Assembly (NCBI GenBank): GCA_022704145.1
Contig: JAKJGY010000084.1
Span: forward strand, 1-16,420
From: Verrucomicrobiota bacterium
GTDB lineage: Bacteria > Verrucomicrobiota > Kiritimatiellia > RFP12 > UBA1067
Length of the DNA: 16,420 nucleotides
Direction of reading: 5' to 3'
The position numbers and the translations under genes were made by a program. A model generated the notes under the pieces. It made no database searches. It was not told where the DNA came from and was given only the letters and a program-made list of their open reading frames with translations. Shown piece by piece: positions 4,918 to 15,810 of the stretch. The number at the start of each line of letters is the position of its first letter. Within the stretch, counting starts at the first letter, position 1.

Positions 4918-7233
4918 TTACTGCACAAGCATCAGCGTGCCGGTGGGCGTGGCCGTGACGGTCAGGCTGGCGGCGCTGCGGCGTTCGCCGTCGGAAGCGT
5001 CCAGCCGCAGCGTGTACACGCCGCTCCGCGTGAAGGTGACGGAGGTGGCGGGGTCGGAGGGGTCGGCGAAGTCGACGTGGGCGGGGTCGCCGGCGACGAC
5101 CGACCAGCCGGTGACGAGTGCTCCGCCTGCGGGCTGGCCGTCGTCTGCGGCCGTCGCGAGCGCGGAGACGGGCTGGCCGGTCTTGACGGTCATGGCGGTT
5201 TGGGCCTCGATCACGGGCGCGTGGTTGTTGTCCGGGTCGGCGGCGAGGCGGCGGATCTCCTCTTCGTTCAGGAAGCGTGAGTAGATGCGCAGCTCGTCGA
5301 GCACGCCGTCGAAGTTGCGGATGCCGCCAGTGGGCCCGTTGTTCGCGACTACGAAAGGCGTGGTGAAATCCACCGCGCCGGGGAAGGGGGTGGTGGTGGT
5401 GGGTTGGGTGGTGTAGGGGTTGGAGATCACCTTGGCGCCGTCGAGGTACATGACCTGTCGCGAGCCGCTGGCCGCGGGGCTGCCGTCGAAGAGGACGGCC
5501 GCGTGGAACCAGCGGTTGGAGGTTATGCCCGCATCTGGCCAGGTCCAGGTGTACTGGGTGGACCCCATCCCGGTCGCGCGCGAGGAGAGGTCGAACTTAC
5601 GGGTCGAGGGATTGTAGAGGATGTAGAAGTTGGGCCCGATGTTGTAGACCCGCTGGATGACGTTGCCGCTGGCGCGCTTGGTGTAGGCCTCGTCGTGGTA
5701 GAACCAGAAGGAGAAGGTCATGTTGGTCGAGTAGGTCGGGAAGGAGGAGCCGACGCCGACAGCGTCGATGCGCGGCGCGCGAAACGCGAGGCCGAGCTTG
5801 CCCGGCTGCAGGAGGGCCGCAAGGTTGAGCGAGAGGGTGATGGCGCCGGCGCTGTCGGTGGCCTTCTTGTCGGTGGGCTCGTCGTCCATCTTCCACCAGT
5901 GGATCAGGCCGTCGGCGAGGTCGCTGGCGGGGGCGGTGACGGCGACGGTGATCTCGTCGCTGTCGCTGGCCGCGCCGTCGTCGGCGGTCAGCCGCACCAC
6001 GTAGGTGCCGGAGGCCGAGAAGCTGGCGGCGGTGGCGTTGGTGAAGGGGTTGTCGAAGAAGACGGCGCCGGGACCGCTGACCTTGGACCAGCGCAGGCGC
6101 GCCGGGCCCGGGTTACCGTCGTCGGTGACCGTGGCGGCGAGCGGCGCGGAGGCGCCGAGCACGGTGCCGGTCGCGGCCCAGGAGGCGGTCACGTTCGGGG
6201 CGGCGTTACCGGCGGGCGCGCTGGCGAGGCGCTCGACCGAGACCTCGTCGGCCACGGCGCCCAGCTCGCTGAAGGCGGTCAGGCGGAAGATGTAGGAGCC
6301 GGGCTCGGGCAGGGTGACGGCGGTTTCGGGGACGTCCGGGAATTCGATGACGGGCGCGGCGCCGTCGGGTGCGGAGACCACGCTCCAGAGGGAGGTGGCC
6401 GAGAAAGCGCGGGTAAAGAGGTTGGTGGGGGCGAGACGGCCTTGGAGGCGCGTCGTGTCGCGGTAGACGGACTGGGCGCCGCCGGCGTCGACGGCGAGCG
6501 GCATATTCTGGTAGAGCGCGAAGACCTCATGGTCCGTCAGGGCGTCATTGTAGATGCGCACCTCGTCCAAGGCTCCGTTCATCGCACGCGTGCCGCCGTT
6601 GGCCGTATTGCCGAGAAAGCCGAAGCTAGCGCCGATGTTATCGGGGGAGTAGGACTTGGGCGTCTGCACGTCGACGCCGCAGCGGATGCCGTTCAGGTAG
6701 AAGACCGGCTGCGCGACCCAGTCGGTGGCGTTGGTGTAGGTCCGCCGCACCACGAGGGAGGCGTGCTGCCACCGGTTGGTCTCGAACTTGAAGGGGATCT
6801 GATCTGGCGTGTTCCACTCGGCTCGGGTAGGCGTAATTCCGAGGCCGATACCGAAGCGCCCTGGCGTATTGAACGCGAACTGATAATACAGGGTGTTGAA
6901 CTGGACGATCTTCGGATAGAGGTTGTTGGTGTACGAGTCGGGAACGTTGAACCAAACGGAGAGCGTGAAATTCGTCAGGTGGGTGCTGGCGTTGAAGCGT
7001 GCCCAGGCGTTGGTCGTGCCGTCGAAGTAGGCGGCCTTGCCGAAGCGGCCGTCCACCATTGTGACGCCGGAGCCGAGCGTACAATGTCGGCCGGAACCGG
7101 AGGCGTCGGAAAGGGTGGTGGCGCCCGGTGCCTCGTCCATGGGCCACCAGCCGATGAGGCGCGGTGCGGCGAAGGCGTGTAAGGAGGCGCAAGTAAGTGC
7201 CAGGCAGAGGACGCGAAGGACAGGTAGGTGCAT
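4918..7233 (-). CDS. Secreted protein with two LamG (concanavalin-A-like lectin/glucanase) domains and PKD/Ig-like domains.
   Basis: 771-aa ORF. Signal peptide MHLPVLRVLCLALTCASLHAFAAP. Two LamG signatures (LDEVRIYNDALTDHEV and LDELRIYSRFLNEEEI). Ig/PKD-like segments (YIFRLTAFSELG, TYVVRLTADDGAASDSDEITV, VYTLRLDASDGERR). GGAGG RBS 6 nt before the ATG at 7233. Confidence 0.7.
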   Translation of the reverse strand: MHLPVLRVLCLALTCASLHAFAAPRLIGWWPMDEAPGATTLSDASGSGRHCTLGSGVTMVDGRFGKAAYFDGTTNAWARFNASTHLTNFTLSVWFNVPDSYTNNLYPKIVQFNTLYYQFAFNTPGRFGIGLGITPTRAEWNTPDQIPFKFETNRWQHASLVVRRTYTNATDWVAQPVFYLNGIRCGVDVQTPKSYSPDNIGASFGFLGNTANGGTRAMNGALDEVRIYNDALTDHEVFALYQNMPLAVDAGGAQSVYRDTTRLQGRLAPTNLFTRAFSATSLWSVVSAPDGAAPVIEFPDVPETAVTLPEPGSYIFRLTAFSELGAVADEVSVERLASAPAGNAAPNVTASWAATGTVLGASAPLAATVTDDGNPGPARLRWSKVSGPGAVFFDNPFTNATAASFSASGTYVVRLTADDGAASDSDEITVAVTAPASDLADGLIHWWKMDDEPTDKKATDSAGAITLSLNLAALLQPGKLGLAFRAPRIDAVGVGSSFPTYSTNMTFSFWFYHDEAYTKRASGNVIQRVYNIGPNFYILYNPSTRKFDLSSRATGMGSTQYTWTWPDAGITSNRWFHAAVLFDGSPAASGSRQVMYLDGAKVISNPYTTQPTTTTPFPGAVDFTTPFVVANNGPTGGIRNFDGVLDELRIYSRFLNEEEIRRLAADPDNNHAPVIEAQTAMTVKTGQPVSALATAADDGQPAGGALVTGWSVVAGDPAHVDFADPSDPATSVTFTRSGVYTLRLDASDGERRSAASLTVTATPTGTLMLVQ

Positions 7234-7257
7234 GTCTAACCTCCAAAGTTACAGGAC

Positions 7258-7349
7258 GAGTATGGTATATCGATAAGGAGCCGTCAATCGGTCAGGCGTC
7301 CTGTTTGACAAAAAATCAGGTAGGTTGGTATATTAAAAACAGGAGCAGG
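7258..7349. promoter_or_regulatory. Divergent promoter region between the LamG operon and the GntR gene. Sigma70-like promoter for the GntR gene: TTGACA at 7305-7310, 18-nt spacer, TATATT at 7329-7334 with an upstream TGG (extended -10). Two TGGTATAT motifs (GGTATA at 7264-7269 and 7327-7332).
   Basis: Read directly from the sequence. The AGGAGCAGG RBS precedes the ATG at 7352. Confidence 0.45.
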
Positions 7350-7351
7350 TT

Positions 7352-8068
7352 ATGGCCAATTACAGTATGGCGCGGCAGGTCGATGCGGCGGCAGGGAACA
7401 CGATGTCGCGTCGGATTTACGATGTGTTAAAGGCGGATATCGAGACGGGGCGGCTGAAGCCAGGGGCGCGGCTGGTGCGAAAGGCGGTGGCGGGACGGCT
7501 AGGTGTGAGCACGATCCCTGTAATTGAGGCGTTTTACCGGCTGGAGATTGACGGTTACGTGGAGAACCTACCGCTGGTGGGCTGCCGCGTGCGGGCGCTG
7601 ACGGTGGAGGAGCTGGATGACGACCTGATGTTGCGCGAGGCCCTGGAGTGTCAGGCTGCGCGTCTGTGCGCGGGTCGATTGAGTGTGGAGGAGGGGGAGC
7701 GGCTGATGCGCAAGGCCCGGCAGGTGGACCGGTTCATCCGTGCCGACACGCCGGACGCGACGCTGGGGAACCAGGCACATTTCGAGTTCCATCTCGAGGT
7801 GGGGCGGCTGAGCGGGCGGCGGGTGTTCGGCGAGCTGCTCAAGAAGGTCTGGTTCCAGCGCTATATGAGCCTGAACAGCCTGAAGGCCATGCGTTTTCAG
7901 TCATTGCCGGACGGGTGGCACCAGATCTTAGTGCGGCGGCTCATGAAGGGTGATCCGGACGAGGCGGAGCGTGCCATGCGGGAGCATGTGCAGTTCGGGC
8001 GGCAGGACGACCGTAACGCGCTTGAGCTGTATCTTCGGGAGCGAGTCCGGCCGGGCCTGTCGCGCTGA
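7352..8068 (+). CDS. GntR-family transcriptional regulator, FadR subfamily (N-terminal HTH plus C-terminal FCD ligand-binding domain). NanR-like candidate regulator of the adjacent sialoglycan locus.
   Basis: 238-aa ORF. RIYDVLKADIETGRLKPGARLVRKAVAGRLGVSTIPVIEAFYRLEIDGYV matches a GntR HTH. The all-helical C-terminal domain is FCD-type. The gene is divergent from the glycan operon. Confidence 0.85.
   Translation: MANYSMARQVDAAAGNTMSRRIYDVLKADIETGRLKPGARLVRKAVAGRLGVSTIPVIEAFYRLEIDGYVENLPLVGCRVRALTVEELDDDLMLREALECQAARLCAGRLSVEEGERLMRKARQVDRFIRADTPDATLGNQAHFEFHLEVGRLSGRRVFGELLKKVWFQRYMSLNSLKAMRFQSLPDGWHQILVRRLMKGDPDEAERAMREHVQFGRQDDRNALELYLRERVRPGLSR
8049..8067. repeat. 19-bp exact direct repeat, copy 1 (GGCCGGGCCTGTCGCGCTG). 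It forms the last codons of the GntR gene.
   Basis: Identical 19-mer at 8889-8907, exactly 840 bp downstream. Confidence 0.8.
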
Positions 8069-8150
8069 GTGCGTCCGGGTGTGGCGCCGTCCGCGAGGAT
8101 TAAGGTTCGATTCGCAACGGTGGTGACGCCAATGGACAGGGGCGGGAGGG

Positions 8151-8179
8151 TTGTCAGCTAGGTCTTTTGCGGTTACAAT
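8151..8179 (+). promoter_or_regulatory. Sigma70-like promoter of the tandem-wHTH regulator: TTGTCA at 8151-8156, 17-nt spacer, TACAAT at 8174-8179. The -10 overlaps the 28-bp palindrome.
   Basis: Read directly from the sequence. The predicted transcription start falls inside the palindrome, the classic layout of an autorepressor operator. Confidence 0.5.
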
Positions 8180-8205
8180 TCCCACACCTCTGGAGGTGTG
8201 GGAAT
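8178..8205. repeat. Perfect 28-bp palindrome ATTCCCACACCTC-TG-GAGGTGTGGGAAT. It overlaps the RBS (GGAGG) and the start codon of the downstream regulator. Candidate operator.
   Basis: 13-bp arms are exact reverse complements. A second copy at 8775-8802 has the central dinucleotide flipped. Confidence 0.9.
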
Positions 8206-8770
8206 GAATAGTTATCATCCGACATTATGGCGGACGTGCCGGGCGCTGGCGAACGTGAAACGGCTCGGATGTCTGAAAGCGGTTCTGGCCGAGCCGGCTC
8301 TGACGGTCGGCGAAGTGGCCGGGCGCGTCGGCATCGCGGAGAACCATGTGAGCGAGTGTCTGCGGGCGCTGCAAGCGCGCGGGTTGATACAGGCGCGCCG
8401 TCACAGCCGCTGGGTGCAGTATGTCCCTGTTCCGGACCCGTTGGTGCCTTGCGCGAGACCTCTCCTGTCGGCGCTTCGGAGGGCGATGCTGAAGGAGAAC
8501 AGACCGGCAGCCGCGCTGGTAAGCGCACTGACCGCGTTTACGCATCCTCGGCGGATCGTGATCATGAGTTGTCTGCAGAAGCATCGCTCCATTTCTGCCG
8601 AAGCGCTGGCGCGGTTAACCGGAATTAGTGTGACGGCCTTGTATCGTCATCTGGGCAAGCTGAGCGCGCGCGGTCTCCTAGCTGCCGATCAAGAAACGTG
8701 GTGCGCGGTGACGGTCAGTGACCCGTTGCTGATGACGCTATTGGGTCTTCTTGATGTGAAGGAGGAATAG
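8204..8770 (+). CDS. Single-chain transcriptional regulator with two tandem ArsR/SmtB-like winged-helix domains.
   Basis: The track ORF is 8198..8770 (GTG start). I prefer the ATG at 8204, which has a GGAGG RBS at 8192-8196. N-terminal half: LANVKRLGCLKAVLAEPALTVGEVAGRVGIAENHVSECLRALQARGLIQARRHSRWVQY. C-terminal half: HPRRIVIMSCLQKHRSISAEALARLTGISVTALYRHLGKLSARGLL. Both fit the ArsR-type HTH pattern. Confidence 0.6.
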   Translation: MNSYHPTLWRTCRALANVKRLGCLKAVLAEPALTVGEVAGRVGIAENHVSECLRALQARGLIQARRHSRWVQYVPVPDPLVPCARPLLSALRRAMLKENRPAAALVSALTAFTHPRRIVIMSCLQKHRSISAEALARLTGISVTALYRHLGKLSARGLLAADQETWCAVTVSDPLLMTLLGLLDVKEE

Positions 8771-8774
8771 TCTG

Positions 8775-8802
8775 ATTCCCACACCTCCAGAGGTGTGGGA
8801 AT
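8775..8802. repeat. Second copy of the 28-bp palindrome (ATTCCCACACCTC-CA-GAGGTGTGGGAAT), 4 bp after the regulator's stop codon. It is the exact reverse complement of copy 1.
   Basis: Read directly from the sequence. Confidence 0.9.
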
Positions 8803-8888
8803 CAGGTGCGATGGACTACGAGAAGGGTGTGTTTCGGGTTGTAACGCCAGGTTCGGAGTATCAGGCGGTATGGCCACTGGGCCGGGCC

Positions 8889-8907
8889 TGTCGCGCTGGG
8901 CGGGGCC
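8889..8907. repeat. 19-bp exact direct repeat, copy 2 (GGCCGGGCCTGTCGCGCTG). It lies 8 bp beyond the rnhC stop.
   Basis: Identical to 8049-8067. Confidence 0.8.
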
Positions 8908-8914
8908 GGGCGGC

Positions 8915-9895
8915 TTACTGAGCCTCGCTGGAGCGCGAGACGGCCTGGCCTTCAGGCCCGAGCGCGGCGCGCGAGCTGCCGCAGGTCGCGAGCACCTGGT
9001 CGGCGGTTCGGAAATGGCACTTGCAGGCCTTGAGCAGGACGGCCGGCCCGGCCTTACGGACCAGTTCAACGGCCGAGGCCTTGACCTGTTCGGATGCGCC
9101 TTTATGCGCTTGGATACCGTAGGTCTCGCCGAGGCGGCCGAGGCTGCGCAGGAAAGACTCGCGGGCGAGCACTGAGGCGGCCGCCACGGCGATGTCCGAC
9201 TCCGCCTTGTGGCGCTGCTCCAGCTTGATCGAACGGCCTTTCTTCATCAGCGCGCGCTCGATCACCTGCTTGGCGCCGAACTGATCGGCCACGGCCCGGG
9301 GGCAGCCGGGCACAGTCTCAAGCAGGTTCTCAATACACCGGGCGTGCGCCCAGGCCAGGAGGCTGTTGACGTTGCGGATCTTGGCATAGAGGCGGTTATA
9401 GGCCTCGGGGCCGATCGAGACCATCGCGAAGCGCTGGGGCCCGAGGAGCTGGCGGGTCTTGCTGCCGATGAATAATACCGCCTTGTCGCTGAGCTGCTTG
9501 CAGTCTTTGACGCCCAGATCCTGCATGGCGTGCGCGAGGTCGGGGTCGACGTATACCGCGCAGGCCACAAGCGGCCCGAAGAAGTCGCCCTTGCCGCTCT
9601 CGTCGATACCCATGTGGGGCGCGACCAGGTCGGGGTTGAGCACCTCCTCGTAGCCGACGGTCGCGTTCTGCAGCACGTTGGGCTCAAGAAAGAAGAGCAC
9701 GAAATCCTCAGCGCCCTTGCCCTGCACCAGGCACTTGCCGCTCTTATACAGGTTGACCACGCAGTCCTGGGCTTCGACGGCGACTACGGTATGGGGAACC
9801 TGCTTGGGCCGGTAGTTTCCCATCTTGAGGAGGAGCTTGAGCGCCTCCTGCTGCTCTTGATTGAGGACGAACGTGTAGGAGTTCTTCTTTTCCAT
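8915..9895 (-). CDS. rnhC: Ribonuclease HIII.
   Basis: The catalytic motif MGIDESGKGDFFGPLV (DESGKGD) lies about 100 aa from the N-terminus, after a TBP-like N-terminal domain, which is HIII rather than HII architecture. The track starts the ORF at a TTG at 9934. I prefer the ATG at 9895 (MEKKNSYTFVL). Confidence 0.8.
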   Translation of the reverse strand: MEKKNSYTFVLNQEQQEALKLLLKMGNYRPKQVPHTVVAVEAQDCVVNLYKSGKCLVQGKGAEDFVLFFLEPNVLQNATVGYEEVLNPDLVAPHMGIDESGKGDFFGPLVACAVYVDPDLAHAMQDLGVKDCKQLSDKAVLFIGSKTRQLLGPQRFAMVSIGPEAYNRLYAKIRNVNSLLAWAHARCIENLLETVPGCPRAVADQFGAKQVIERALMKKGRSIKLEQRHKAESDIAVAAASVLARESFLRSLGRLGETYGIQAHKGASEQVKASAVELVRKAGPAVLLKACKCHFRTADQVLATCGSSRAALGPEGQAVSRSSEAQ

Positions 9896-9944: not shown

Positions 9945-11174
9945 TCAGGATCCGGCGGCGAGGGCGGCCAGAGGGAAGGGCTCGAGGCAGCGCGGCAGGA
10001 TGCCTTGCAGTGCGGCGATCAGCACACCGTAGTTGACCACCGGAACCCCGGCGGCCTGGGCCTGCCGGATGCGGTAGTGCATCTCGCGCCGGTTGAGCAT
10101 ACAGCCGCCGCAGTGGATCACCAGCGCATAACGCGCCAGGTCGCGCGGATACTTCATGCCGCTGGCGTGCTCGAACTCGAGGGCGCGGCCGGTATGCTGC
10201 CGCAGCCAGCGCGGGATCTTGACGGTGCCGATGTCGTCGGACTGGCGGTGGTGCGTGCAACCTTCGGCCACGAGGACGCGGTCGCCGTCCTTGAGCGACT
10301 CAATGGCCTTGGCGCCGCGCACGAGGGCCTCGAGGTCGCCCTTGTAGCGCGCGAAGAGGATCGAAAACGAGGTCAGCGGCACGTCGCGCGGCGTGTCGGC
10401 CGAGACTTTGGCGAAAACCTGTGAGTCGGTGACCACCAGCCGGGGCTTCCGGGCGAGGAGCGCGAGGGTCTCGCGCAGCTCGAACTCCTTGGTGACCACC
10501 GCGATGGCGTCAGCCTCGAGCACGTCGCGGATGACCTGCTGCTGCGGCAGGATCAGGCGGCCCTTGGGCGCGGCCTTGTCAATCGGCGTGACCAGCACGA
10601 CAAGATCCGAGGGACGGAGCAGATCACCGAGGAGCTGGAACTTGTCGGCCTCCTCCGGCACGGCCTGGGCCAGGGCGAGCTTGAGATCCTCGACCCCGTC
10701 GCCGGTCGCAGACGAGACAGCGTGGGCCGGCCGGCCGGACGCGGCGGCGGCCTCGGCGAGCTGAACGGCGTCGGGCGCGGCGAGGTCAGCCTTGTTGTAC
10801 ACGGCGAAAAGCGGGAGGCCTTTGGTGCGCACAAGGCCGAGGATCTCACGCTCGCAGTCGCCTAGGCCGTGCTCGGCCTCCAGCACCAGGAGGGCCACGT
10901 CGGTCTTATTCAGCACATCGCGCGCGCGCTGCACGCGAAGGGCGCCGAGCGCACCCTCGTCGTCGAGCCCCGGGGTGTCGATGATCATGACCGGCCCGAG
11001 CGGCAGCAGCTCCATCGCCTTGTAGACGGGGTCGGTGGTGGTGCCCTTGACGGCCGAGACGATCGAGACCTCCTGGCCGGTGAGGGCGTTGATGAGGCTG
11101 GACTTACCGACGTTACGTCGGCCGAAGAGGGCGAGGTGCGTGCGTTCGCCTTGGGGTGTCTGATTGAGGCTCAT
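9945..11174 (-). CDS. hydF: [FeFe]-hydrogenase H-cluster maturation GTPase HydF.
   Basis: 409 aa. G1 motif GRRNVGKSSLINAL, TTTDPVYK, DTPGLDD and NKAD GTPase motifs. C-terminal EGCTHH...(x45)...HCGGC matches the HydF CxHx(44-53)HCxxC cluster-binding signature. The protein aligns along its whole length with what I recall of Thermotoga HydF. Confidence 0.88.
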   Translation of the reverse strand: MSLNQTPQGERTHLALFGRRNVGKSSLINALTGQEVSIVSAVKGTTTDPVYKAMELLPLGPVMIIDTPGLDDEGALGALRVQRARDVLNKTDVALLVLEAEHGLGDCEREILGLVRTKGLPLFAVYNKADLAAPDAVQLAEAAAASGRPAHAVSSATGDGVEDLKLALAQAVPEEADKFQLLGDLLRPSDLVVLVTPIDKAAPKGRLILPQQQVIRDVLEADAIAVVTKEFELRETLALLARKPRLVVTDSQVFAKVSADTPRDVPLTSFSILFARYKGDLEALVRGAKAIESLKDGDRVLVAEGCTHHRQSDDIGTVKIPRWLRQHTGRALEFEHASGMKYPRDLARYALVIHCGGCMLNRREMHYRIRQAQAAGVPVVNYGVLIAALQGILPRCLEPFPLAALAAGS

Positions 11175-13254: not shown

Positions 13255-13708
13255 GGCGCCGGACGGCGCGCCACACGCGCGGGGTCGTCGGGTGCGGGCC
13301 CTGGGGTTGGTGTCGCGCGCGCCCTCGCAGGCTGCGCGTGGAGGGCGGCTCTAACATGGGCATGGCCCGCAACCCAAATTGGAAGACTGGAATGATGGAA
13401 TGGTGGAAGGATGGGGGTTGAGACCGAAGCAACCGAAGTGATCTTCCAACATTCCAGTATTCCACCCTTCCCAAACAACTTGTATTTTATCAGTGTTGTT
13501 CGTTCGTAAGGCAAAACATACATGCGGACGGGTTGCGTACCAGGCCTGCCCACCCCCTTCGTCCCGATGCGCGGCGCCGGACGAAATGCGCTTGTGGCCA
13601 AGCAAATCAATAATATCAGACCGTCCCAGAAATATTTCAAAGATACCATTTGACAACAGACATAAACAAATCGTAACATAGGGGCGTTTTAAGGAGGAGG
13701 TGTGTCTC
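13255..13708. other. AT-rich intergenic island (about 45% GC, against about 70% background) containing imperfect GGAATG-type repeats and a hairpin.
   Basis: GC counted by hand on four 60-nt lines: 37%, 60%, 55%, 33%. Partial inverted repeats at 13386-13409 and 13446-13461. Confidence 0.6.
13650..13700 (+). promoter_or_regulatory. Sigma70-like promoter (TTGACA at 13650-13655, 18-nt spacer, TAACAT at 13674-13679) and a consensus AGGAGGAGG RBS at 13692-13700.
   Basis: Read directly from the sequence. This is the strongest SD in the window. Confidence 0.4.
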
Positions 13709-14056
13709 ATGCCGACGGACAAAGAGCATTTGAGCGTCGAGGAGGTGGCGGACGAGCTGGGCGTGACGTACCAGTTGATCTACCGTCTGGTGCGGTCGGG
13801 CGAGCTGCCCGCGGCGCGTCTGGGCAAGCTATACCGGGTGTCGCGGGCCGATCTGAACGCCTATCTGGAGCGCAGCAAGCGCGATGTCGTGGGCGGCGGC
13901 GGGACGTGCGCGGCGTGCGGTACGTTCTATCGCAGCAAGGGCGCGCTGCAGCAGGCCTGCGCCGCCTGTGGCGCGCCGGTCTGCTTTGACTGCTGGATGC
14001 GCCTGGGCGTACGGACGTGCAAGGAACATGGCGCGGCCGAAACCGCGGCCCGCTGA
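13709..14056 (+). CDS. Small DNA-binding protein: N-terminal HTH_17 (excisionase/MerR-type) domain fused to a C-terminal Cys-rich zinc ribbon.
   Basis: The track ORF is 13700..14056 (GTG start). I prefer the ATG at 13709. LSVEEVADELGVTYQLIYRLVRSGELPAARLGKLYRVSRADLNAYL is a typical excisionase-family HTH. The C-terminus carries CAAC-x14-CAAC-x4-CFDC-x9-CKEH. Confidence 0.65.
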   Translation: MPTDKEHLSVEEVADELGVTYQLIYRLVRSGELPAARLGKLYRVSRADLNAYLERSKRDVVGGGGTCAACGTFYRSKGALQQACAACGAPVCFDCWMRLGVRTCKEHGAAETAAR

Positions 14057-14151: not shown

Positions 14152-15810
14152 ATGGGCATATTCAGTGACCGGTGTGACGCGTTGATCGACCCCAACACGG
14201 GGCGGGCCTTGGGTGGCGAGGCGCTGGCGCAGGCGAAACTGGAGCCGAAGTGGCCGCGTTGCAACAACTCCGTGCGCAAGGCGGCGCGGTTCTGCAACAA
14301 GTGCGGCTCGGGCGCCCCGGGCGGCTGGTGGCGCTGCCCCTCGTGCAAGAAGTGGATCGGCAACGAGGCGCAGTTCTGCTCGCACTGCAACACCCCGCTC
14401 TTCCCGGAGGACCGCTCGGTCATGGCCGGCGGTGTCTGGCGCAAGGATGTCGGCCTGTTCGCGCAGCGCTTTGAGATCGGCGACGTCAAGCGGCTGCTCC
14501 AGAGCGACCTTCTGGTGCAGGAGGGCACGGTGGCGGTGGTCTTGGACGGCGGCCACGTGCACGGTATCCTGGGCAGCGGACGTCACAACCCGGACAGCCT
14601 GGCGCGTGCGATCAACTGGTTCGGCGACCCGCCGCCGCGCTCGGTGGTGATGGTGGATGTCGGCGATGTGGCGCTGCCGTTGCGCGTCGAGGGGCTGCGT
14701 ACGGCCGAGCATCATCCGATCGCGTTCTACGGCGAGGTGATCCTGCGTTTCGGAAACGACAAGGCCGCGGCCTTGGCCTTGCTGGAGAACGCGCTTAAGG
14801 ACGCCCGCCACCTGGCGTATAAGGAAATCTCAGAGAGCCTGCAGGGGGTGGTGCGGGCGGCGGTCGACGCGCTGTGCGTGACCTCCACGCTCGACGACCT
14901 GGTGCGCGACCCGGAGCGGCGGACGCGCCTGCAGGAGACGATGACGCGCATGATCGGCGCGGATATCGGCCGACGCGGGTTGGCGGTGGTGCGGGTCTCC
15001 TCGGCCGAGTTCACCGGCGACGAGTACGAGGCGTACGCCGAGCGCCTCGGCGACGTGGACATCAAGCGCCGCGAGCAGGAATACGCCGACACGGTCCGTA
15101 AGCTGAAAAAGAAGGAGGAGATGGAGGCGTACAAGGACGCGGACGAGCTGCGCGCCTTCAAGGCCCTCATCGACAGCGAGTACCGCGTCTCTCAGGCCAC
15201 GCGCGACCGCGAGTGGGAGCTGCTCAAGCGCGAGTGGCAGCATGACGACATCCGACATCAGCAGCTTCTGGAGGTCGAGCGCACGGCGCATGCGATCGGT
15301 GTGCAGGTCCAGAAGGACGACTACGGCCGCGACAAGGACATCAAGGACGCGGGCGCGGCGGCGGAGGCGCGCGACCAGACGTTCGGGCAGGAGCGCAAGG
15401 AGGCGGAGTGGGCGCTCGACATGCGGTCCCGTAAGGATCAGATCGAGCTGGACCGCAAGGCGGCCGAGGCCAAGCGGCGCGAAGGCATGACCACCGAGCA
15501 GATGCTGGCGGACGTGGACGACCCGTCGCTGCGCAAGGAGCTGGTCGAGCTGATGAAGGCGGAGCGCAACCGCACCATGACGCCGGAGCAGATGCTGGCC
15601 GAGGCGGCGCTGCACAACCCGGCGGCGGCCGAGGCGCTCGCGCGCATGGCCGACCGTACGCGGCAGAACGCCGAGCAGGTGCTGGCCGAGATGAAGAAGC
15701 TCTATGCCGACGCGGCCGAGCGCCAGGACCGGAACCTCAAGACCATGCTCGAGCCGGCCGTGGAGGCCGCCAAGCGACAGGCGGCCCAGCCGCAGACGAT
15801 CGTGCATTAA
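14152..15810 (+). CDS. Flotillin-like protein: N-terminal double zinc ribbon, central Band-7/SPFH domain, C-terminal long charged coiled-coil with MT[TP]EQMLA repeats. No transmembrane segment.
   Basis: 552 aa. Zinc ribbon: FCNKCG...RCPSC...FCSHC. SPFH-like block: LLVQEGTVAVVLDGGHVHGILGSGRH...VDVGDVALPLRVEGLRTAEHHPIAFYGEVILRF...LAVVRVSSAEFTGDEYEAYAERL. The C-terminus is E/R/K/A-rich and contains GMTTEQMLADV and TMTPEQMLAEAA. GAGGTGG RBS. Confidence 0.65.
   Translation: MGIFSDRCDALIDPNTGRALGGEALAQAKLEPKWPRCNNSVRKAARFCNKCGSGAPGGWWRCPSCKKWIGNEAQFCSHCNTPLFPEDRSVMAGGVWRKDVGLFAQRFEIGDVKRLLQSDLLVQEGTVAVVLDGGHVHGILGSGRHNPDSLARAINWFGDPPPRSVVMVDVGDVALPLRVEGLRTAEHHPIAFYGEVILRFGNDKAAALALLENALKDARHLAYKEISESLQGVVRAAVDALCVTSTLDDLVRDPERRTRLQETMTRMIGADIGRRGLAVVRVSSAEFTGDEYEAYAERLGDVDIKRREQEYADTVRKLKKKEEMEAYKDADELRAFKALIDSEYRVSQATRDREWELLKREWQHDDIRHQQLLEVERTAHAIGVQVQKDDYGRDKDIKDAGAAAEARDQTFGQERKEAEWALDMRSRKDQIELDRKAAEAKRREGMTTEQMLADVDDPSLRKELVELMKAERNRTMTPEQMLAEAALHNPAAAEALARMADRTRQNAEQVLAEMKKLYADAAERQDRNLKTMLEPAVEAAKRQAAQPQTIVH

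Follow-up and report, generated by a model that had tools for sequence, protein, structure and literature searches.

An exact 19-bp direct repeat at lineage-specific breakpoints around a palindrome-flanked tandem ArsR/SmtB gene in a Kiritimatiellia bacterium

Contig JAKJGY010000084.1 (GCA_022704145.1), from a Kiritimatiellia genome bin, carries an exact 19-nucleotide (nt) direct repeat on either side of a small single-gene module, and we analysed the whole of this 16,420-nt contig, hereafter the window. To the left of the module lies the gene for a GntR/FCD regulator (7352–8068, plus strand; Pfam GntR and FCD), which is NanR-like and belongs to a sialoglycan-utilisation locus. To the right lies rnhC (8915–9895, minus strand), encoding RNase HIII (Pfam RNase_HII and DUF3378; its close homologues, from Kiritimatiellia, bear the name ribonuclease HIII). 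Between them, the gene for a 188-amino-acid (aa) single-chain tandem ArsR/SmtB-type winged-helix protein (8204–8770, plus strand; stop codon 8768–8770) runs convergently towards rnhC and is flanked by two palindromes, P1 and P2. The original prediction for this stretch had described the enclosed segment as a promoter, a palindrome, a tandem winged helix-turn-helix (wHTH) regulator and a second palindrome, and we recovered each of these at the coordinates given below.

The repeated sequence, GGCCGGGCCTGTCGCGCTG, occurs twice in the window, both times on the plus strand, and no third copy was present there at up to three mismatches. Copy 1 (8049–8067, plus strand) encodes the tail of GntR, RPGLSR, together with the first two bases (TG) of its TGA stop codon. 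Copy 2 (8880–8898, plus strand) is non-coding and lies 17 nt downstream of the rnhC stop codon (8915–8917, minus strand). The original prediction was right that the repeats are exact and direct, that copy 1 forms the 3′ end of the GntR gene and that copy 2 sits just past the rnhC stop; it had placed copy 2 at 8889–8907, an error of 9 nt. Its figure of 840 bp for the cassette is approximate, the copies being 831 nt apart from start to start (3 × 277) with 812 nt in between. The flanks to the left of the two copies are unrelated, as had been stated for both sides, but this was slightly too strong for the right side, where 8 of the next 12 bases are identical (27 of 31 overall). Copy 1 is separated from P1 by 110 nt, and P2 from copy 2 by 77 nt; alignments between the two spacers, and of each against every locus retrieved, recovered only the 19-mer and the weak 8/12 extension. 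The 19-mer is not palindromic, and RNA structure around the two copies was no different from that of shuffled controls.

We compared independent assemblies of the same species, namely the window contig and three Logan assemblies, all of other samples (L001, L148 and L149). The Logan assemblies were 94–99.95% identical to the window overall and more than 99.5% identical across the junction region. Two of them, L001 and L148, run from GntR through the cassette into rnhC and contain both 19-mers intact, and L149 stops inside the cassette; all four assemblies carry the cassette with both copies of the 19-mer or whatever part they cover. Because the independent assemblies agree, the arrangement is not an assembly artefact. 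The 19-mers were conserved in all sampled strains despite single-nucleotide polymorphisms (SNPs) 5 nt to the left and 27 nt to the right of copy 1. When compared with window positions 6545–8581, L149 was about 85% identical in the LamG-PKD gene to the left of approximately 7000 and more than 99.5% identical rightward, a mosaic that suggests within-species recombination between strains.

Both sides of the cassette are derived, lineage-specific breakpoints. On the left, five related Kiritimatiellia contigs (L144–L147 and L150) carry a GH123/SASA gene, a LamG-PKD gene and GntR, followed directly by TRAP dctQMP. The GntR orthologues in these contigs are 71–76% identical, and 70–78% is the range for the orthologues followed by dctQMP in relatives. 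Conservation of GntR, at both the nucleotide and the protein level, ends at ...YLRE near position 8041, and the tail is variable among the 59 homologues in the matches listed; copy 1 lies inside this variable tail, about 8 nt past the end of the homology. On the right, loci whose RNase HIII is 93–94% identical (L134–L143) have different neighbours beside rnhC, a DDE transposase in some and a small, convergently oriented gene in others, and none of these relatives has a 19-mer-like sequence downstream of rnhC. In the closest RNase HIII relative (94% identity; L142/L143, 1583–3145), the gene immediately following rnhC is the DDE transposase; in other relatives a small gene of 143 aa takes this place, and the region past rnhC is variable in this group. 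Our sample of related loci, 774 kb from Kiritimatiellia, Lentisphaerae and Verrucomicrobiota, contained no near-copy of the 19-mer (≤3 mismatches), and in more distant relatives the GntR–rnhC adjacency is absent altogether. The two junction intervals measure approximately 136 and 112 nt, and each holds one copy of the 19-mer. The presence of one copy in each of two independently defined intervals is our main reason for favouring a common origin of the repeats over chance.

The enclosed gene is preceded by a predicted sigma-70-like promoter, TTGTCA-17-TACAAT (8151–8179, plus strand; 10 of 12 matches), whose −10 element abuts and overlaps P1; a −10-like element occupies the same position in several homologous modules. 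P1 (8178–8205) is a perfect 13-2-13 palindrome, ATTCCCACACCTC-TG-GAGGTGTGGGAAT. It starts within the −10 hexamer of this promoter-like sequence and covers the GGAGG ribosome-binding site as well as the first two bases (AT) of the start codon. Its hairpin reaches -24 kcal/mol only when P1 is fully transcribed, then burying the ribosome-binding site. A transcript starting about 7 nt after the −10 element includes only part of the left arm (-13 kcal/mol, z = -1.1) and forms no strong hairpin. P2 (8772–8805) begins one base past the stop codon; its core (8775–8802) is the exact reverse complement of P1, with CA at the centre and arms extending to 16 nt, and its hairpin reaches -28 kcal/mol on either strand. 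No U-tract follows P2 and a terminator scan of 7100–9100 was empty, so P2 does not qualify as an intrinsic terminator. In other modules the arms of the 3′ palindrome are often lengthened to 16–27 nt by locus-specific bases, which argues for a hairpin or cruciform role of the 3′ copy besides any protein contact. We considered whether the TG and CA centres of P1 and P2 mark an invertible segment and rejected this, as the difference is not conserved in other modules. Rfam returned no family match in the contig or the cassette.

Consistent with a tandem architecture, Pfam HTH_20, HTH_5 and HTH_24 matched both halves of the protein. When a profile built from 55 homologues was compared with the PDB, each half matched YgaV, NolR, SmtB, HlyU, ArsR and CzrA (E values of 2e-9 to 1e-4). 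An AlphaFold2 model (pLDDT 93.7, pTM 0.87) shows the order α1-α2-α3-αR-β1-β2-α5 twice. The best domain matches in Foldseek were CzrA, SmtB, HlyU and NolR, with TM-scores of 0.65–0.80 normalised to the target; these were single ArsR/SmtB domains, and the search found no solved full-length counterpart of the tandem protein. The canonical inducer sites of the family are α3 CXC, α3N and α5 DXHX10HX2E; in the 55-sequence alignment neither CXC nor DXHX10HX2E is visible in either half, and Cys12, Cys23 and His114, in α1, α2 and α2′, are conserved instead. Homologues with 45–65% identity are common in metagenomes, where 397 matches were found; no full-length homologue was found on a plasmid or phage, and exact-protein look-ups returned no record of the protein under either start codon. 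The G+C content at third codon positions (GC3) of the gene is 0.69, compared with 0.80–0.95 for its neighbours in the window. Low GC3 was also seen in homologues from eight other genomes (L002, L005, L010, L012, L016, L037, L041 and L062). We therefore rejected it as a sign of recent transfer, since the homologues were GC3-poor in every genome tested.

Two copies of a related palindrome flank the gene in every independent full-length locus that could be read, ten in all (the window, L002, L005, L010, L012, L016, L037, L041, L062 and L079), the 5′ copy in the same register relative to the ATG. In these loci the 3′ palindrome lies just after the gene end or overlaps it. The contexts of the modules are unrelated, for example feoAB in L002 and mgtE in L005, and its position, or that of a truncated remnant of it, differs between two related Lentisphaeraceae genomes. 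In L034 (about 4971–5603), a 5′-truncated wHTH gene with its 3′ palindrome fills a convergent intergenic spacer; the matching spacer in L010 (5657–5717) is only about 60 nt long, and an intact module lies 1.6 kb away.

To judge how unusual the repeat is, we compared it with simulated sequence. No exact direct repeat in the window is longer than the 19-mer, the runner-up being 15 nt. When the window was simulated with Markov models, exact direct repeats of 19 nt or longer arose with a probability of 0.25% at order 1, 2% at order 3 and 4.8% at order 5, the last being an overfitted null; when the copies had to lie within 1.5 kb of each other, the probability was 0–1.5%. The estimate of 1e-3 to 1e-2 in the original prediction was about right by these simulations. 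The repeat by itself is unusual yet not extraordinary for a scan of many windows.

We give roughly an even chance to the interpretation that the 19-mer pair is a junction scar from recombination or insertion. A single-gene module of about 0.8 kb would have been placed between the 3′ ends of GntR and rnhC in a species-specific rearrangement, which would also have removed or shifted dctQMP. Such a scar might represent a short target or homology that was duplicated, or a nearby stretch that was copied as breakpoint filler, and copy 1 would now provide the last six codons of GntR and most of its stop codon. The insertion or recombination origin put forward in the original prediction gains from the synteny breakpoints on both sides but loses from the lack of an empty site and of a recombinase on the contig.

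Several observations weigh against a junction scar. Domains of a transposase, integrase or other recombinase are absent from all genes of the 16.4-kb contig, although an enzyme encoded elsewhere and acting in trans is conceivable. Gaps of 110 and 77 nt separate the repeats from the palindromic ends of the module, so the repeats are not a classical target-site duplication. The original prediction had proposed aligning relatives for a GntR–rnhC junction with a single 19-mer; no such empty-site allele was found in the four assemblies or among the close RNase HIII and GntR homologues, and the relatives differ in synteny. No circular or alternative junction was seen either (the predicted empty junction is GGGAGCGAGTCC-GGCCGGGCCTGTCGCGCTG-GGCGGGGCCGGGCGGC and the predicted circle junction ...GGTATGGCCACTG-GGCCGGGCCTGTCGCGCTG-AGTGCGTCCGGG). 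Deleting the insert and one copy of the repeat would make GntR read about 90 codons into antisense rnhC (open reading frame 8795–9175), so that a simple insertion into an intact GntR–rnhC junction is unlikely and at least one further event has to be assumed. No flanking direct repeat longer than 11 nt was found within 400 nt of the nine other full-length modules, nor within that distance of two unrelated palindrome-bracketed genes. The 19-mer pair is therefore peculiar to this locus and not a property of the module, and no general conclusion on module movement can be drawn from the scar. Low GC3, being a family trait, provides no evidence for recent arrival. Approximately five isolated, unexplained exact repeats of 19–25 nt were present per 770 kb of GC-rich loci, which suggests that real genomes are richer in exact repeats than Markov models. 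The 19-mer was also found in 48 unrelated metagenome contigs, as single matches, and in one viral contig. This rate fits the GC-rich composition of the 19-mer; the 48 metagenome contigs have nothing else in common with the window, and several of the matches are conserved C-termini of unrelated proteins ending in ...PGLSR-stop, such as a family of about 420–525 aa. We considered the metagenome matches as possible empty sites and rejected them as chance matches without other similarity to the window. The viral match was likewise rejected; it lies in GC-rich DNA, and its extended similarity is low-complexity.

One alternative explanation is that two GC-rich, codon-like 19-mers are identical by coincidence, without a common origin, and we grant this a minor but real share of the probability. 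The higher-order nulls allow 2–5% per window, scanning of many windows will yield such events, the external matches include several that end in ...PGLSR-stop, and nothing specific to a mechanism, for instance a recombinase or an empty site, came to light. However, the repeat is 4 nt longer than its runner-up, weak identity runs on over 8 of 12 further bases, and both copies fall within breakpoint intervals of about 136 and 112 nt, a placement that we estimate to lower the probability of chance by a further factor of 1e-3 to 1e-4. It is also conceivable, although we consider it unlikely, that the copies are independent members of a short dispersed repeat family of this genome. Related genomes are rich in short dispersed repeats, the palindrome family included, and similar loci hold other unexplained exact repeats of 19–25 nt; moreover, our search of the source genome for 19-mer and palindrome copies covered these 16.4 kb only. 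By contrast, a repeat family is at odds with the lack of any copy at up to three mismatches in 774 kb of relatives or elsewhere in the contig, and the 19-mer is neither palindromic nor structured above shuffled controls.

We do not think that the 19-mers are working recombination sites, that is, attL/attR-like cores or substrates for RecA-independent deletion that would make the cassette excisable or exchangeable. The exactness of the repeats in all sampled strains despite nearby SNPs, the single self-contained gene between them and a spacing divisible by three would fit such a role. However, there is no recombinase nearby, no other module has such repeats, no plasmid or phage homologue was found, the four assemblies show no presence/absence polymorphism and excision would damage GntR, and we regard working sites as very unlikely. 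A chimeric join through a shared k-mer might be suspected in a metagenome-assembled contig whose repeat length is near that of small assembler k-mers, but it is refuted by the three independent Logan assemblies spanning the same junctions, and its probability is negligible. Returning to the junction scar, the lack of a transposase or integrase, the distance of the repeats from the palindromes and the lack of plasmid or phage homologues lead us not to place the module among transposons, integrative elements or integron cassettes. The repeat alone would be an ordinary scar, with a new C-terminal tail of GntR as its sole consequence.

The palindromes that flank the wHTH gene belong to a dispersed family. 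Scanning one genome per species with the pattern T..CACACCTC..GAGGTGTG..A, we found the core CACACCTC-NN-GAGGTGTG at 80 or more loci (L006–L085), nearly all in Lentisphaerae, Verrucomicrobiota and Kiritimatiellia bins; among the matches listed, at least 15 loci were in one Verrucomicrobiota bin and at least 8–9 in each of three others. The outer bases and the central dinucleotide are genome-specific, and the dispersed copies match the pair flanking the wHTH gene. This window holds only two copies of the palindrome, both of them flanking the gene. About 80% of the copies were intergenic by a crude gene caller, and they favoured neither the 5′ nor the 3′ ends of genes (21 divergent, 18 convergent and 27 tandem spacers). 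We considered the palindromes as operators of a coherent regulon and rejected this, because the adjoining genes revealed no functional theme and the copies no 5′ over 3′ preference. Cores with one mismatch were almost absent (1 versus 98 perfect copies, in a sample biased in that every locus was fetched because of a perfect copy). By contrast, a symmetric double variant with both arms changed together, CACACTTC-NN-GAAGTGTG, occurred seven times in the same loci (L008 at 3157, L015 at 3595 and 4135, L018 at 6596, L058 at 4447, L065 at 3990 and L069 at 203).

The family extends into and around other genes. In three genomes a palindrome lies in frame within an Amidohydro_3 gene (...QTYPSHTSGGVRISEQ...), each time at the orthologous position (L075, 2621–2644; L063, 5606–5629; L067, 673–696). 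Other single genes bracketed by palindrome pairs encode a Phd/YefM antitoxin-like protein (L029, 5010–5626) and the tRNA methyltransferase TrmO (L011, 846–1928). Palindrome doublets were considered as a composite element and rejected, because, one duplicated pair aside, most of the sequences between them are unrelated. In one Verrucomicrobiota bin, segments of 0.5–1 kb are duplicated at about 98% identity (L026, 4839–5806, and L073, 1644–2612; L039, 3803–4292, and L082, 246–735), and one of them holds a palindrome doublet. We found no description of this motif, or of a winged-helix-associated REP family, in the searchable literature.

How might the protein and the palindromes be related? By analogy with ArsR/SmtB repressors that bind inverted repeats over their own promoters, we infer that the protein most likely binds the palindromes and acts at P1 as a repressor of its own gene. 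P2 could then be a second binding site, the 3′-end hairpin of the two convergent transcripts, or both. However, the two recognition helices differ in sequence in the alignment, and a single chain reading a perfectly symmetric site fits poorly with this difference. A broader proposal, which we put forward as possible rather than probable, is that Planctomycetes-Verrucomicrobia-Chlamydiae (PVC) bacteria possess a REP-like palindrome system, with this module as its master locus. The protein would be a single-chain ArsR/SmtB pseudo-dimer that recognises CACACCTC-NN-GAGGTGTG, perhaps as duplex or as extruded hairpins, controls itself through the two flanking copies and acts on or helps to maintain the tens of near-perfect copies dispersed between genes and, occasionally, in frame within them; the locus would have moved to its present site and left the 19-bp duplication.

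Other features of the window stand apart from the module. The GntR gene has a promoter-like site at 7305–7334, and TGGTATA occurs twice in its promoter region (7262–7268 and 7326–7332), the second copy overlapping the −10 element. NanR binds GGTATA repeats, which the TGGTATA pair resembles. The pair fits a sialoglycan locus, here with BNR sialidase-like, SASA/GH123 and LamG-PKD genes; TRAP dctQMP follows in relatives but not in the window. A 38-nt inverted repeat (10658–10695 and 10835–10872; 84% complementary, 139 nt apart) lies within hydF. A small HTH_17 (excisionase/MerR-like) gene at 13700–14056 has a trough in GC content just upstream of it, at 13400–13800 (0.52; contig, 0.69). Three imperfect tandem repeats of 87–90 nt (15486–15720) fall in the C-terminal part of a zinc-ribbon/Band 7 gene (14152–15810).

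Compared with known systems, the 19-mer pair shares with attL/attR sites and target-site duplications the presence of exact direct repeats around an inserted unit at a synteny break. It differs from them in having no integrase or transposase, in that the repeats are not contiguous with terminal repeats, and in the lack of an empty site and of any other module copy with repeats. Nineteen nucleotides is also long for a duplication made by a transposase. The in-frame palindromes of the amidohydrolase gene in three related genomes recall Rickettsia palindromic elements, which likewise lie in frame inside genes; this comparison is based on one gene, and the palindromes here are about 26–30 nt long, compared with about 100–150 nt in Rickettsia, and occur in a different phylum.

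The protein and its sites are closest in layout to the ArsR/SmtB family. Repressors of this family form homodimers through α1 and α5 and bind imperfect 12-2-12 inverted repeats that overlap the promoter they regulate, often their own. Both halves of the protein share the winged-helix fold of SmtB, CzrA, NmtR, NolR and HlyU, and the predicted operator has the same layout, a 12/13-2-12/13 inverted repeat over its own promoter and ribosome-binding site. In contrast to the homodimers of the family, two units are covalently linked here in a single chain of 188 aa, the canonical α3 CXC and α5 DXHX10HX2E metal sites are not visible, a second, identical palindrome follows the stop codon, and the site is repeated across genomes with almost no degenerate copies.

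The dispersed copies, by contrast, bring to mind the REP/REPIN-RAYT systems, in which palindromes are dispersed and mostly intergenic, usually flank a single gene and occur as genome-specific variants (PMC3337134, PMC3733652); REP palindromes carry a GTAG or CGTC tetranucleotide tag at one end (PMC3733652). The palindromes described here likewise flank a gene on both sides, and in related genomes they are dispersed, mostly intergenic, and come in genome-specific variants that match the flanking copies; the 16 kb of this window contain the flanking two only. Unlike in REP/RAYT systems, the flanked gene encodes a winged-helix protein without an HUH/Y1 (IS200/IS605-like) nuclease domain, the palindrome sequences listed have no GTAG or CGTC tag, and the copies are near-perfect, their arms changing together. 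The module and its dispersed palindromes, which would combine ArsR/SmtB-type autoregulation with REP-like repeats, are the part of this locus worth following. If the protein binds these sites, this would be a repetitive-palindrome family tied not to a transposase but to a DNA-binding protein. Such a family would offer a tractable route to the roles of such palindromes, whether in insulation, termination, chromosome organisation or regulation, and to the source of their uniformity.

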